This document shows, piece by piece, positions 1,743-5,931 of a stretch of 39,980 bases of DNA. Below the pieces are notes generated by a model. It saw nothing but the letters and a program-made list of their open reading frames with translations, ran no database searches and was not told the origin of the DNA. Source of the DNA: a virus (lineage: Duplodnaviria; Heunggongvirae; Uroviricota; Caudoviricetes); the IMG/VR virus record IMGVR_UViG_2617270954_000001. One strand, 5' to 3'. Numbering within the stretch: the first letter of the stretch is position 1; each line of letters starts with the position of its first letter. The translations under genes were made by a program, and so were the position numbers.

Positions 1743-1773
1743 TAGTTTAATAGTTTAATAGTTTAATAGTTTC
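1734..1773. repeat. Tandem 8-bp repeat ATAGTTTA, about 5 copies, overlapping the int stop codon
   Basis: Read directly: atagtttaatagtttaatagtttaatagtttaatagtttc. Confidence 0.85.
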
Positions 1774-1958
1774 AGTCCAATATTACATTTTAGCATTGCA
1801 AACAAATATTCACTCACGCAACGGTTAATTAAGAAGCAACCAAGTAATCTTAGTGATGATGTTTCAGAATGATGAGTAACAAATCGTTAAATCAAGTATT
1901 CGATGCTAGTGTTTTGAGCCTCTTTAGCTGATATTATTGTCGTTTACTCTACTTTACA

Positions 1959-3881
1959 TTGAATTGTTTGATGACCATGACTACACGATATAGATCTGAT
2001 ATTGATGGCCTACGAGCACTTGCTGTCCTTCTTGTTTTTGCTTATCACCTCAAGCTATCACCTTTTAGTGGCGGCTTTATTGGTGTTGATGTCTTCTTCG
2101 TTATCTCTGGATTTCTTATCACTGGTATTGTTATAAAAGCTATTGACAGAAATAGTTTCTCATTATCTGACTTCTTTAACAGAAGAATAAAGAGAATAGT
2201 ACCAAATGTTTTTTTAGTTGCATCTTGTACAATTATAGCCGGATGGTTCATCCTATTACCAAAGGATTATTCTTCACTTATTAGTAGCTATTTGTACACA
2301 TCCATCTACGCTGCTAACTTTTATTTTTGGAAAGCGACAGGAGCTTATTTTTCATCTTCTGCAGATGAGATGCCACTACTTCATATGTGGTCATTGGCCG
2401 TAGAGGAGCAATATTACTTTATATGGCCAATTATTATTTTACTTGCACTAAAGCACATTAAGACAAAACATATTGGTGTTATTACATTAATAATTTCAGT
2501 ATTTGCCTTTATATTCTCTGAAATAATGGCAAGGCGTTACGCTGGGTTCTCATATTATATGCCAATCACACGCTCTGGAGGCTTGCTTCTAGGGTCCGCC
2601 CTAGCATTAATGAATAGAGATTATAAAAAAATAAGGGAGTTTAATTCTTACATAGTAGTAATATTAGGAACTATTCTTATTGCGGCATCATCTGTAACAG
2701 TGAACAAATTATCAGTGTTTCCTGGGTTAAATTCTGCGATACCATCATTTGGTGCAATGTTAGTAATTTTAGGGGGGAACGGGTTTAATGGCAATGTGAT
2801 ATCAAAAATCTATGGTTCAAAAATAATATCCACAATTGGATTGCTATCATTCTCAATATATCTTTGGCACTGGCCGTTGATTGCATATTCAACATATATG
2901 GGAGTGATAGACTCACTTGAAGTCAAATTGACAATAGTACTCCTGACATTTATTTTATCATATTTAAGTTTAAAATTCATTGAGAATCCAATAAGAAAAT
3001 CAAAAATATCATTTGTTCGTTCTTTTATTTTTATTAACACATTTTTTATTGCAACTGCTTTTATTGTGTTGTTTATGTCAACTATAACAAATGGCTTCAA
3101 ATTCAGAAGTGTAGGAGAAAATCATAATTTAGATGTGAAATATGCTGGAATGGACGAAGGATGGTGTCATGTTAGCGCAGAAGGAAAAAATGGCATAACT
3201 TTTAATGAGTCTATGGCCAAATGTTATATAGGTGATAAAACATCAAATAAAGAAGCTCTATATATTGGTGATTCCAATGCAGGGCATTACGGTCCATTTG
3301 TAGATGAAATGGGTCGCAGGGCTGGAATAAAAATAAATCAACTGAGCACTTCATCTTGTTACCCAACAAGAGAAGTTAAGAAAGATGGAGAAAACCCTGA
3401 TGTCTGCATAAACTTCAGAAGAATAATTAATGAAAAAATAAAATCTGGTAAATATGATACAATTATCATTGCTAATAGATGGGCAAGGGATGATAAGAAT
3501 ATGTCATATAAAAACGCTAACTTCACCGAGTTCCTATCATTTTACTCATCTCACGCAAAGAAAGTTATTATTATGGATCAAATGCCTGAGTGGGTAATAA
3601 ATCCCGCTGCCTGCTACGAGAGAGGAACATGTGATGCTGAAACTAATTTTGATCTAGCACCAGGATTGGATGAGTCGCGTAAAAAAATAGAAAGCGCAGC
3701 ATCACATTTTAATAATGTTTATCTTGTTGACCCGTACTACCTAATGCTTAAGAATAAAAAATACACACCTTTCGCAATGGGATACCCTATGTACCATGAC
3801 AATGGTCATTTAAGCATCAATGGAATGATGTGGATTGCGGAAAAATACTTGCAAGATAATAAAAACCCACTTGAAGATTAA
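1959..3881 (+). CDS. oafA: O-antigen acetyltransferase, OafA/OatA-like (acyltransferase-3 membrane domain plus C-terminal SGNH domain)
   Basis: 640 aa; N-terminal multi-TM acyltransferase-3 signature (DGLRALAVLLVFAYH); C-terminal SGNH motifs YIGDSNAGHY and YHDNGHLS; AT-rich relative to flanks. Confidence 0.8.
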   Translation: MNCLMTMTTRYRSDIDGLRALAVLLVFAYHLKLSPFSGGFIGVDVFFVISGFLITGIVIKAIDRNSFSLSDFFNRRIKRIVPNVFLVASCTIIAGWFILLPKDYSSLISSYLYTSIYAANFYFWKATGAYFSSSADEMPLLHMWSLAVEEQYYFIWPIIILLALKHIKTKHIGVITLIISVFAFIFSEIMARRYAGFSYYMPITRSGGLLLGSALALMNRDYKKIREFNSYIVVILGTILIAASSVTVNKLSVFPGLNSAIPSFGAMLVILGGNGFNGNVISKIYGSKIISTIGLLSFSIYLWHWPLIAYSTYMGVIDSLEVKLTIVLLTFILSYLSLKFIENPIRKSKISFVRSFIFINTFFIATAFIVLFMSTITNGFKFRSVGENHNLDVKYAGMDEGWCHVSAEGKNGITFNESMAKCYIGDKTSNKEALYIGDSNAGHYGPFVDEMGRRAGIKINQLSTSSCYPTREVKKDGENPDVCINFRRIINEKIKSGKYDTIIIANRWARDDKNMSYKNANFTEFLSFYSSHAKKVIIMDQMPEWVINPAACYERGTCDAETNFDLAPGLDESRKKIESAASHFNNVYLVDPYYLMLKNKKYTPFAMGYPMYHDNGHLSINGMMWIAEKYLQDNKNPLED

Positions 3882-3951
3882 TTGAGTTATAATTTTTATT
3901 GGTAATATGAACCTCTTAATTTATGAGAGGTTCATATTTTCATTGAAATAT

Positions 3952-4644
3952 TTAATTGTGCTCCTTAGCAAAGCGCAAGCTACCTGCGCTTAATACTGCA
4001 GATAACGTATCTCCCACTCTAGTCACACTTAAGTTGCTAGTTCCTGCAATGTAACTAACAGTTGTCGTTGTTGCCAGTGTCATAACTATTGGTATAGTTA
4101 TGACTCGTTCTGTACCTCCGCTATCAACAAACTGAACAGATAAAAACTGAAACCTTCTATTTATTTTATATGAAAATGATAATCCAGATATGGATAATAA
4201 ACCACTTTGTCCTATTTTTATATTCCAATCAGAAAAATCAGTTATGTTAGATGGGTCTATATTATTTTGCGAGTACCATGATGTTATTGCGCCTGATGAT
4301 GTTTTTCCTTTAAAATAAACAAATGAACTACTTGCTTTTTTAAAATTATTATCACATATGATAACCACCTCTTGAGTTGATAGTTTAGTTTCATCATAGA
4401 ATGCGCTGGTAAGTACTGCGTCATCTGCGTTAACACCCCGTATCTCAGAAATCTTAGTCACACCAGCCTTGTCAGTGTCTTCCGCTTTGTTTATGAGAGA
4501 GTCTGTATTGTTTACCCACGCAGACAGCACTCTAGCCACAGGGGTGTTATACTGACGCATCAATTGCGAAACACCAGAGATAATACCTGCCTTTAAAGTG
4601 ATTTCCTGGCAATTGTTGCCGTAAGCAAGGATTGGTTTATTCAC
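3952..4644 (-). CDS. Tailspike distal segment (in-frame continuation of the tailspike after a TAA stop)
   Basis: 230-aa ORF in the same frame as 4714-5931, separated only by TAA at 4714-4716 and 23 stop-free codons; Ser/Thr-rich beta-like composition; AT-rich. Confidence 0.5.
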   Translation of the reverse strand: MNKPILAYGNNCQEITLKAGIISGVSQLMRQYNTPVARVLSAWVNNTDSLINKAEDTDKAGVTKISEIRGVNADDAVLTSAFYDETKLSTQEVVIICDNNFKKASSSFVYFKGKTSSGAITSWYSQNNIDPSNITDFSDWNIKIGQSGLLSISGLSFSYKINRRFQFLSVQFVDSGGTERVITIPIVMTLATTTTVSYIAGTSNLSVTRVGDTLSAVLSAGSLRFAKEHN

Positions 4645-4713
4645 CCCATCCCATCTATAATTGCCAACTTCAACATCAATTCGTCCACCACTGCACCATA
4701 CAACAGCATTTGT

Positions 4714-5931
4714 TTATCCTCCGTCAAACTTAACCCCATAAACAGCACCAACTTTAACAAAAGCGTAGCGTTCGGCGTTTATTTTCATTTGAAGCGGGTT
4801 GTTGCTGGTTCCCGTGACGTACCCAATATCTATACGGCAATTATCTCCTGCGCCATCTACGTTAATGCCGCGGTGGTCAGATCCAATAACCCCGCCAGAG
4901 CCGACAACGCTACAGTTTTCACAAGTAAAGAAACCAATAGGGTTGTTGTTGTGCGGTTTAGAATGAATGGAGTTATATTCTGTACCTATCTTGCCGTTAA
5001 GAATGTAGGTAACATTTTTCATAACAGCTGTAATTGTGTAGTTATTGCCATCCCAAACCGTTGCATCAGGGTTAAGAAAATGTGCAAAGGACCACATACC
5101 CCCGGAGTTTAACCCCATAATTTCTGGCCCTACCGTGGGGTCATCGTAACGCCCCATAACTGTAACCCCAGCTTCGTGGTGTATTTCTATATTATCTCGT
5201 AATGGATGAATAGAGCCAAGAACATAAAAAGTACCTGTTGCACCATATTCAAATTTACTGAATCTTGTGTCTCTTACCAGTTTTTGAATTACATTACGGT
5301 TATGCGCGGCGTTTAGCGGAACATATTCACCTTCAATAATGCCAGCGGAAGCGAAATTAGGCGTCATTAAAATAAGATACCCACCAACTGCAGAAATATA
5401 AAATATAGGTGACTGTGGTTTTTCAGTTGTAAACACCCAATCTGTTACAACTGGAACATTATAATAATAAGTTCTAACCTTTTTCCCATCTGTTAACCCT
5501 AATATTGATTGGGCCTGTTCAACGGATGAGCATTCGAGAATAGCACCACCAACGATAATGACTCCTGCGCTCCCCTGTAATTCTTGCCGTAGCTGATCAG
5601 GATCATACTTCAACACATTCGGAAAATAGAACTGCTGCGAACCATACGCATCATAAACAGCCATAGAATGGCCTTGCACAGTTACGAACTTGGCAATCTG
5701 TCCGTTATATACAGGATAACCAGCAGCGTTAATGATGATTGGTTGCGAAACAGGAACGTGAGAGCCGTCTTCGTTCTCCACATAAACCTGAATCTGGTTT
5801 TCAGGATTTACCGGGTCAGTGTCAATTTTACCGATATAAATTTTGCCATTGGCAACCGCTTTAAAAGAACGCGCCATAGTGAAGAGTTGCGAAGGCATGC
5901 TTACCACAACATTTGCGGTGATATCTGTCAT
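4714..5931 (-). CDS. Tailspike protein, N-terminal 405 codons (P22 gp9-type head-binding domain plus start of receptor-binding domain)
   Basis: N-terminus [11 protein letters not shown]...[30 protein letters not shown] closely matches the P22 tailspike head-binding domain as I recall it. Confidence 0.85.

Follow-up and report, generated by a model that had tools for sequence, protein, structure and literature searches.

The presence of a glycan-modifying moron beside the receptor-binding gene of a phage is a well-known general rule. We analyzed here one such case, the putative O-acetyltransferase gene (1971-3881, plus strand) and the convergent tailspike gene (3952-5931, minus strand) of the IMG/VR record IMGVR_UViG_2617270954_000001, a stretch of 39,980 nucleotides that is hereafter called the window. 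The closest analogues of this enzyme are found in two other temperate phages. GtrC (renamed OafB) of the Salmonella Lederbergvirus BTP1, also a P22-like temperate phage, combines an acyltransferase-3 (AT3) domain with an SGNH domain, acetylates rhamnose in the O-antigen of Salmonella and confers protection from the BTP1 tailspike (PMC9558356). Oac of Sf6 is an AT3-only protein of 333 amino acids (aa) without SGNH domain, and its substrate is the rhamnose in the Shigella flexneri O-antigen backbone. A further system for comparison is CUS-3, a P22-like prophage integrated at argW with the same int-moron-tailspike order, which carries neuO in the moron slot and whose host glycan also contains sialic acid. 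NeuO, the O-acetyltransferase of the K1 polysialic acid, is a soluble hexapeptide-repeat enzyme unrelated to AT3-SGNH proteins, and its phase variation proceeds via heptanucleotide repeats annotated within neuO. In P22 itself, the slot between the integrase and tailspike genes is occupied by gtrABC.

The gene pair of the window is already known and corresponds to an ordinary serotype-conversion gene beside a tailspike gene, for which a functional suggestion was published in 2012 (PMC3303846). The clone of the 2011 O104:H4 outbreak carries this locus, and the tailspike has already been built into an O104-specific bactericidal particle. Scholl et al. 2012 (PMC3303846) proposed that the same neighbor gene (EGR74046) encodes an O-antigen acetylase and remarked on its retention by the outbreak strains within what is left of their prophage. 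To this, our analysis adds a strict co-occurrence of the pair with O104/K9, a second attachment site, a mosaic of alleles and the recurrence of the pairing in other genera. We propose that the region is the lysogenic-conversion end of a P22-like temperate phage of Escherichia coli producing the O104/K9 polysaccharide, and that the enzyme is expressed and acetylates the O104/K9 polymer of the lysogen, beside a tailspike recognizing this polymer. Taken as a whole, this proposal appears likely to us, expression, polymer, and target sugar being inferred.

The acetyltransferase and the tailspike

The acetyltransferase open reading frame (ORF) spans 1959-3881 (plus strand) and encodes 640 aa when read from a TTG, whereas the start retained by RefSeq, an ATG at 1971, gives a protein of 636 aa. 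A previous reading of the window from its letters alone (the sequence-only reading) had described a 640-aa protein combining acyltransferase-3 and SGNH domains, encoded between int and the tailspike gene, and had interpreted it as an O-antigen O-acetyltransferase. We recovered both Pfam domains far above their cutoffs, Acyl_transf_3 (PF01757) with 84.8 bits (cutoff 31) over residues 14-335 and the AT3-fused SGNH domain (PF19040) with 113.4 bits (cutoff 27), as well as a full-length match to PHROG 6705, annotated as "O-antigen acetylase" (E = 3.7e-147). The location was also as described, between int (starting at 585 or 549 and ending at 1742, plus strand) and the convergent tailspike gene. The protein consists of a multi-helix membrane domain (residues 1-342) and an SGNH domain (residues ~400-636). 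In the AlphaFold2 model (predicted local distance difference test score 90.3), these appeared as a helical bundle at 9-342 and an alpha/beta domain from residue ~400, with an extra helix at 348-372; the last hydrophobic segment ends at residue 376, the membrane topology suggested by these features being a prediction. The best fold match of the model in the PDB, obtained with Foldseek, was 6SE1 (E = 9.4e-7, TM-score of 0.65 normalized to the target), the crystal structure of the OafB SGNH domain. A search of the PDB sequences with the single acetyltransferase sequence gave no match, and 6SE1 was reached only by the family profile (E = 8e-5), whose GDS and DxxH blocks fall on the IGDS and DWGH of 6SE1, respectively.

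In an alignment of 30 homologues, the invariant positions were R15, H26, FFVISG at 42-47, R72/R75, E338, G433-D434-S435, D610, and H613. We take the Arg/His pair, the FFxISG and the RxxR of this protein to match the residues required for OafA activity; an Arg/His pair in the first helix, FFxISG, and RxxR were reportedly found by Pearson and colleagues in 2020 to be needed for it. The search of NCBIfam only recovered a sub-threshold AT3 match to the mycobacterial SucT, and no equivalog applies. BTP1 GtrC/OafB and gene 15 of g341c, which exhibit the same AT3 and SGNH architecture, were 33% identical to the acetyltransferase over 85% of its length (E = 1e-54 to 1e-56), the tblastn alignment leaving out the last ~90 residues of the acetyltransferase. 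Among phage records, orf28 of Pseudomonas D3 came next with 27.6% identity, and Sf6 Oac, a distant relative, was 25% identical over 230 residues (E = 1e-6), the similarity being confined to the AT3 domain. Similarity to proteins of the OafA, OafB and Oac types, which the sequence-only reading had proposed to look for by a homology search, was recovered in BTP1 GtrC/OafB, Sf6 Oac, and 6SE1. As judged from its architecture, motifs, and modeled fold, the protein is an OafA/OafB-type (GtrC family II) AT3-SGNH O-acyltransferase, and homology supports its reading as an O-antigen O-acetyltransferase.

The tailspike gene (3952-5931, minus strand) comprises 659 codons and corresponds to an intact 659-aa protein in strain 2011C-3493. 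Its head-binding (particle-attachment) domain (aa 1-113; 5593-5931, minus strand) was recognized by Pfam PF09008 (E = 1.3e-67) and matched the N-termini of the Sf6 and P22 tailspikes in the PDB (E = 1e-45 to 1e-65). The receptor-binding domain (RBD; aa 114-659; 3955-5592, minus strand) is predicted to fold as a right-handed parallel beta-helix followed by a C-terminal beta-sandwich. The protein thus combines the head-binding domain and the beta-helix of a P22-like tailspike, but its reading frame is interrupted in the window. Beyond the head-binding domain, no sequence relatives were found in the PDB, and the PHROGs matches only reached the first ~130-170 residues, leaving the receptor-binding part without a PHROG family; this part was described as having little similarity in GenBank (PMC3303846). 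Neither an endosialidase nor an SGNH deacetylase was indicated, the fold being that of a generic beta-helix. In this respect the tailspike differs from that of CUS-3, which is an endosialidase; no endosialidase matched the window tailspike by sequence or among the best 60 fold matches. The specificity of the tailspike is known from the work of Scholl et al. 2012 (PMC3303846), who showed that the 659-aa protein EGR74047 targets O104 and K9: a fusion of aa 114-659 with an R-type pyocin was lethal to every O104 strain tested and to an O9:K9 strain, but to strains of no other serogroup.

At 4716 of the window, CAA is changed to TAA, so that tailspike codon 406 (4714-4716) is a stop and the gene is divided into two ORFs (405 and 230 aa), a defect that the sequence-only reading had overlooked. 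The reading frame is intact in 2011C-3493, whose protein differs from that of the window by Q406* and V510A, and in NCCP15648, from which the window differs by this single change between ~2040 and ~8070. The stop was present in none of the eight other copies read at this position, and none of the remaining genomes reached 100% in the match (99.3-99.9% or lower). Particles made from this copy as it stands should be devoid of a working RBD.

Within the tailspike core, window 4300-4715 exhibited 80-81% DNA identity to the tail-fibre genes of two lytic phages, CLB_P1 (Kayfunavirus) and ECO104 4-5-2, which indicates an exchange of receptor-binding segments between temperate and lytic phages. The DNA search of phage records gave only this match to part of the tailspike, and no phage with the acetyltransferase gene was found.

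Distribution and mosaic structure of the gene pair

We searched for the pair in 5,426 complete E. coli genomes. The acetyltransferase gene was present in 24 of them, every copy being at least 99.6% identical, and the tailspike RBD was present in the same 24 genomes (99.3-99.9% identity in 18, 94.2% in three, and ~73% in three). The O104 wzy-wzx genes were recovered in 37 genomes (97.8-100%), including all 24 carriers, and neither the acetyltransferase nor the RBD was found in any of the other 5,389 (p = 5e-57 by Fisher's test, without correction for clonality). The carriers appear to span four or five host lineages. They include NCTC9104, which we take to be the O104 reference strain and which carries the O104 wzy-wzx cluster. 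In another carrier, MRE162 (L003, NZ_CP119400 1750000-1799999), an O104-type wzx/wzy sialic-acid cluster is flanked by galF and gnd, and a mannan cluster of the O8/O9 ABC-transporter type is located just past wzzB, a combination that fits an O8 or O9:K9 serotype. Because of this second cluster, the O104-type polymer of MRE162 is presumably the K9 antigen.

The pair occupies two attachment sites, argW/intS in O104:H4 and TOK-001 and a site beside dacD in MRE162 and NCTC9104, and both tailspike alleles were found at both sites. We compared the window with MRE162, NCTC9104, and TOK-001 by 100-bp sliding identity. A conserved block (1730-4065), which spans the acetyltransferase gene with its leader and terminator as well as the final ~38 codons of the tailspike, was 99-100% identical in every E. 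coli lineage compared, whereas the variable tailspike core (aa ~195-620; 4065-5350, minus strand) exhibited only 51-78% identity to the allele shared by NCTC9104 and TOK-001. MRE162 exhibited a divergent patch (81-89%) at 4365-4865. Over ~5365-5860, corresponding to the head-binding domain and the conserved start of the RBD, identity was mostly back to 94-100%. The difference between 99-100% and 51-78% identity suggests that the acetyltransferase block and the tailspike core do not have a single common history. In E. coli, the two genes always travel together and yet, from the sequences compared, without having one history. The TOK-001 locus at argW (L017, NZ_AP018395 2553210-2565417) is itself a remnant that has kept int and a protein-identical acetyltransferase (WP_000178979). 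There, the tailspike gene is of the divergent allele, in split form and with a pseudogene annotation, and dsdX/dsdA stand in place of the remainder of the phage.

The GC content was 0.301 over 1743-1958 in the leader of the acetyltransferase gene (1743-1970, plus strand), 0.342 in the gene itself and 0.214 at 3882-3951, compared with 0.476 in int and 0.473 in the remaining 33 kb of the phage. All 300-bp windows starting at 1601-4301 (covering 1601-4600) fell below the 5th percentile (0.403) of the phage background. We considered that low GC could be a by-product of the amino-acid composition of membrane proteins and rejected this explanation, since the GC content at third codon positions was the same (0.279) in the membrane and soluble halves of the acetyltransferase. 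According to the sequence-only reading, the AT-rich composition extended from the acetyltransferase gene into the distal two-thirds of the tailspike gene, which suggested that the enzyme and the receptor-recognizing domain had been acquired as a unit. The sliding-window GC plot confirmed that the composition is not uniform and that the acetyltransferase gene is AT-rich, but the continuous AT-rich block runs from ~1700 to ~4450 and only includes the C-terminal ~160 tailspike codons, that is, a quarter of the gene. The GC content of tailspike residues ~250-490 (0.43-0.45) is like that of the head-binding domain (0.434), and a separate dip was observed at 5150-5650 (residues ~130-250). In the NCTC9104-type allele, by contrast with the ordinary GC of the window allele in the middle of the RBD, a low GC content (0.31-0.38) extends through the entire RBD, in continuity with the acetyltransferase gene.

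Beyond E. coli, the RBD family is small (29 clusters in 5.8 billion proteins) and its N-terminal anchors vary, being of the P22 head-binding, Tail_spike_N, or T7 type, or absent. Relatives of the RBD occur in lower-GC genera such as Providencia and Hafnia; none was found when one-genome-per-species contigs were scanned with the RBD alignment. Linkage was examined systematically in nine IMG/VR loci and 10 exact-protein contig look-ups, by considering the gene immediately downstream of, and convergent to, the RBD-family member. In at least four further lineages, which differ in their tail genes, this gene belonged to the same acetyltransferase subfamily, namely in L025, which carries myovirus-type baseplate genes (63% identity for the acetyltransferase and 72% for the RBD), in the P22-like L026 (67 and 40%), in L004/L005 (Enterobacter hormaechei) and L011 (67-68 and 41%, with siphovirus-type tail genes in L004), and in L006 (61 and 30%). 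The same position was occupied by an AT3-only acyltransferase in L012, L013, and L014 (RBD 32-41%), by a weak AT3 match cut by the contig end in L010 (RBD 54%), by gtrA/gtrB/gtrC-like genes in Hafnia paralvei (L018; RBD 65%), and by a gene for a 378-aa protein without Pfam family in Providencia rettgeri CP109846 (L027; RBD 54%); L009 and L015 had no modifying gene (RBD 55 and 30%). In L027, two copies of the 378-aa ORF (7775-8911 and 9772-10908) are convergent to the tailspike gene, in the slot of the acyltransferase of other loci. Finally, subfamily acetyltransferases with 55-61% identity, from Cronobacter, Providencia, Morganella and one further genome record, adjoin the last tail-fibre or tailspike gene of myovirus-type prophages, and in every one of them the acetyltransferase gene is AT-rich relative to its flanks. 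On the loci compared, the pairing of the acetyltransferase with the RBD is frequent, not obligatory, and its recurrence is a modest new detail.

These results bear on the possibility that the acetyltransferase gene and the whole RBD were acquired as a single AT-rich cassette from a low-GC donor and joined to a resident head-binding domain. The perfect co-occurrence in 24 of 24 E. coli genomes, at two sites, agrees with such an event, as do the AT-rich and contiguous RBD of the NCTC9104-type allele, the pairing of the same subfamily with the RBD in L025, L026, L004/L011, and L006, and the lower GC of the Providencia and Hafnia in which RBD relatives reside. However, a single event fits poorly with a block at 1730-4065 that is almost invariant next to a tailspike core so divergent between alleles, with the ordinary GC content of the window allele over residues 240-480, and with the identities of the two proteins, which are not rank-correlated across pairs (63/72 vs. 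67/40). It also fits poorly with the other partners observed, the RBD being associated with gtrABC-like genes (Hafnia), AT3-only enzymes (L012-L014) or nothing (L009, L015), and the acetyltransferase with unrelated tail fibres. We thus regard acquisition in one block as doubtful. The part of the earlier claim that stands is that the pair is shared and recurrent; the sequences indicate that the acetyltransferase and tailspike genes form no indivisible block, the tailspike core having been exchanged or having diverged independently.

Proposed function and alternatives

The gene combines several features of a serotype-converting moron, a glycan-modifying product, a position between int and the 3' end of the tailspike gene, an atypical composition and a terminator of its own. 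By analogy with OafA/OafB, its AT3 membrane domain would take the acetyl group from cytoplasmic acetyl-CoA across the membrane (with R15/H26, FFVISG, and RxxR), the extra transmembrane helix would put the SGNH domain in the periplasm, and the Ser435/Asp610/His613 triad would hand the acetyl on to one of the sugars in the O104/K9 repeat unit. The likeliest acceptor would be the sialic acid, reported as Neu5,7,9Ac3 for the O104 residue. Unlike the glycan of the BTP1 host, that of O104/K9 hosts presumably contains no rhamnose. The beta-helix tailspike would bind, and probably cleave, the same polysaccharide. The two genes would be separate transcription units with a common hairpin terminator, and they would co-occur because both are tied to one glycan and both lie in an exchangeable prophage end. 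Neu5Ac or derivatives of it (e.g., Neu5Ac,7Ac,9Ac) occur in five E. coli O antigens, O104 among them (PMC7685785), and the E. coli enzymes responsible for O-acetylating the sialic acid of O antigens have been described as poorly characterized (PMC9631793).

The non-coding sequences around the gene were inspected for signals of expression. Between the convergent genes, a hairpin with a perfect 15-bp stem (3904-3938) is located at the same position as the Sf6 terminator; the fold of 3880-3955 has an energy of -24 kcal/mol (z = -5.9), none of 200 shuffled sequences being as stable, and the hairpin is probably a bidirectional terminator. At the other end, a tandem repeat of the 8-bp unit GTTTAATA (1729-1772; Tandem Repeats Finder: period 8, 5.5 copies, score 81) overlaps the int stop codon, ~200 bp 5' of the acetyltransferase start, without altering the Int reading frame, and delimits the conserved AT-rich block on the left. 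Its perfect units, counted by a single regular expression just upstream of an anchor common to all strains, numbered three in TOK-001, five in 2011C-3493, MRE162, and L008, seven in L007, and nine in NCTC9104; the window has four perfect units and one variant unit. Unlike the repeats of neuO, this one is outside the acetyltransferase ORF. Looking for NeuO-type repeat control inside the ORF, we only recovered a weak repeat of 15 bp (2.3 copies) at 2100-2134, and AT3 and SGNH were the only domains found in the protein. No GATC sites, as in the Dam/OxyR phase variation of gtr operons, were seen by eye in the leader.

Several observations weigh against an expressed O104/K9 acetylase. Upstream of the acetyltransferase gene, neither a sigma-70 promoter nor a ribosome-binding site could be recognized; the promoter scan returned fewer matches than in shuffled sequence and none within the leader, and a gene with a GC content of 0.34 could be silenced. 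Since 13 of the 37 O104 genomes lack the gene, production of the O104 antigen does not depend on it. A NeuD-like acetyltransferase is encoded by the first gene of the O104 cluster, and this enzyme could account for the O-acetylation of the sialic acid. None of the receptor-binding proteins beside the relatives with 55-61% identity belongs to the O104 family, and because subfamily members adjoin such unrelated tail fibres, the acceptor sugar cannot be read from family membership. In L008 (IMGVR_UViG_3300013958_000148, ~8715-10623), a 99% identical homologue aligns as two overlapping parts (aa 1-272 and 268-636), which suggests a frameshift or a sequencing error in this metagenomic contig. Finally, our literature search found no functional (biochemical or genetic) study of the acetylase.

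Two other roles for the enzyme can be considered. In the first, acetylation would block the phage's own tailspike, so that lysogens would be immune to superinfection and virions would not be trapped on debris. Such a role is documented for the closest analogues, Sf6 Oac and BTP1 OafB (PMC9558356), and the adjacency and strict co-occurrence of the enzyme and tailspike genes (24/24 genomes) would be in line with it. However, unlike in BTP1, the window-type tailspike, when mounted on a pyocin, still killed strains carrying the acetyltransferase, namely the outbreak strains, 2009EL-2050/2071, and 55989; the non-carriers 94-3024 and RM9387 were killed as well, and no difference according to acetyltransferase status was reported (PMC3303846). 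Since a single pyocin hit is lethal, acetylation is perhaps partial and the enzyme is perhaps not expressed, a partial protection could still exist. Self-exclusion seems unlikely to us and is not favored here. In the second, the enzyme would be a mere passenger, either silent or acetylating another substrate such as peptidoglycan, enterobacterial common antigen, or colanic acid, and the link with O104 would only mirror the host range that the tailspike confers. Since O104/K9 hosts alone can be lysogenized by a phage whose tailspike is O104-specific, the same host restriction is expected with any substrate; AT3-SGNH proteins modify many different surface polymers (PMC9558356), and the lack of a clear promoter and the NeuD-like enzyme of the O104 cluster go in the same direction. 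On the other side, the gene remained intact and at least 99.6% identical while neighboring phage genes decayed, the catalytic residues are all conserved, O-antigen acetylases are the named families that match best, and every subfamily member examined adjoins a phage receptor-binding gene, the usual slot of receptor-modifying morons. We therefore judge a passenger role to be quite improbable, less probable still than self-exclusion.

Acetylation of the O104/K9 polymer of the lysogen is thus the reading that we prefer. The acetyltransferase gene was intact where the phage had decayed, in TOK-001 with its pseudogene tailspike, in the window with its nonsense tailspike, and in the remnant of the outbreak strain, which suggests a benefit for the host. 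As a more specific and only tentative proposal, the enzyme may be the missing periplasmic sialate O-acetyltransferase of O104/K9, acting on O-7 and/or O-9 of the internal Neu5Ac. If so, it would be the first AT3-SGNH enzyme shown to act on sialic acid, a new class of substrate for OafA/OafB enzymes, and would account for a long-reported feature of the antigen. It would be kept for a benefit to the host (e.g., resistance to sialidase, to other phages, or to immune recognition) rather than for blocking its own tailspike, and the recurrent pairing in Enterobacter and other hosts would mark a common glycan motif. Such an activity could have a bearing on serotyping, on epitopes for vaccines or antibodies, and on O104-directed therapy with phages or pyocins.

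Other features of the phage genome

The window is a complete genome of a P22-like temperate phage (Lederbergvirus, Sf6-type) in its excised form. Over window 15000-39980, a prophage of E. coli NCCP15648 was 100.0% identical, and no other complete genome covered at least 80% of this part. The 2011 O104:H4 outbreak strains have a prophage at argW/intS that was 99.9% identical over window 1700-6000. In the chromosome NC_018658, identity starts at window 409, which corresponds to position 1710 of L001, within a tRNA-Arg gene (L001 1650-1724). Window 1-408 corresponds to phage DNA of the xis side, where the O104:H4 chromosome has its bacterial flank (yfdC, tRNA-Arg). Because a TorI-like xis ORF and phage DNA precede the att core, we conclude that the window is in an excised (circular or phage) configuration.

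The small ORF at 135-335 (plus strand) occupies the position of the TorI-like excisionase of Sf6 and HK620, as indicated by the ORF list, the Sf6 gene order, and phage matches annotated as excisionase or TorI; it had no match in Pfam. The approximate attP core (409-424) was placed at the start of chromosomal identity and matches the 3' end of the tRNA-Arg gene argW, CUS-3 having an annotated 16-bp attL core. It is followed by the gene for an IntS-type tyrosine integrase (585-1742, plus strand; Pfam Phage_integrase with E = 5.3e-39, Phage_int_M, and Arm-DNA-bind_3; intS in RefSeq), with a RefSeq start at 585 and a longest ORF from a GTG at 549. The resulting order (xis, attP, int, acetylase, terminator, convergent tailspike) is identical to that of Sf6 in both order and orientation (TorI-like xis, attP, IntS integrase, acetylase, terminator, convergent tailspike), and the int and head-binding sequences of Sf6 exhibit 95-96% DNA identity to the window.

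Elsewhere in the phage, phage-borne genes for tRNA-Thr (TGT) and tRNA-Asn (GTT) adjoin each other at 24604-24759 (minus strand), and the ORF at 38677-39306 encodes a dATP/dGTP pyrophosphohydrolase domain (E = 3.5e-42) and a DUF551 domain. Further AT-rich windows were observed at 32501-32850, 33601-34250, 35201-35500, and 39301-39800. A second AT-rich patch (7200-8462, with 300-bp GC below 0.40) comes after the gene of an Arc-family regulator (7389-7640) and encodes two proteins without match in Pfam, one of 104 aa with a signal-peptide-like N-terminus (7637-7951) and one of 161 aa (7977-8462) annotated as a lipoprotein in RefSeq; this patch may correspond to another moron.

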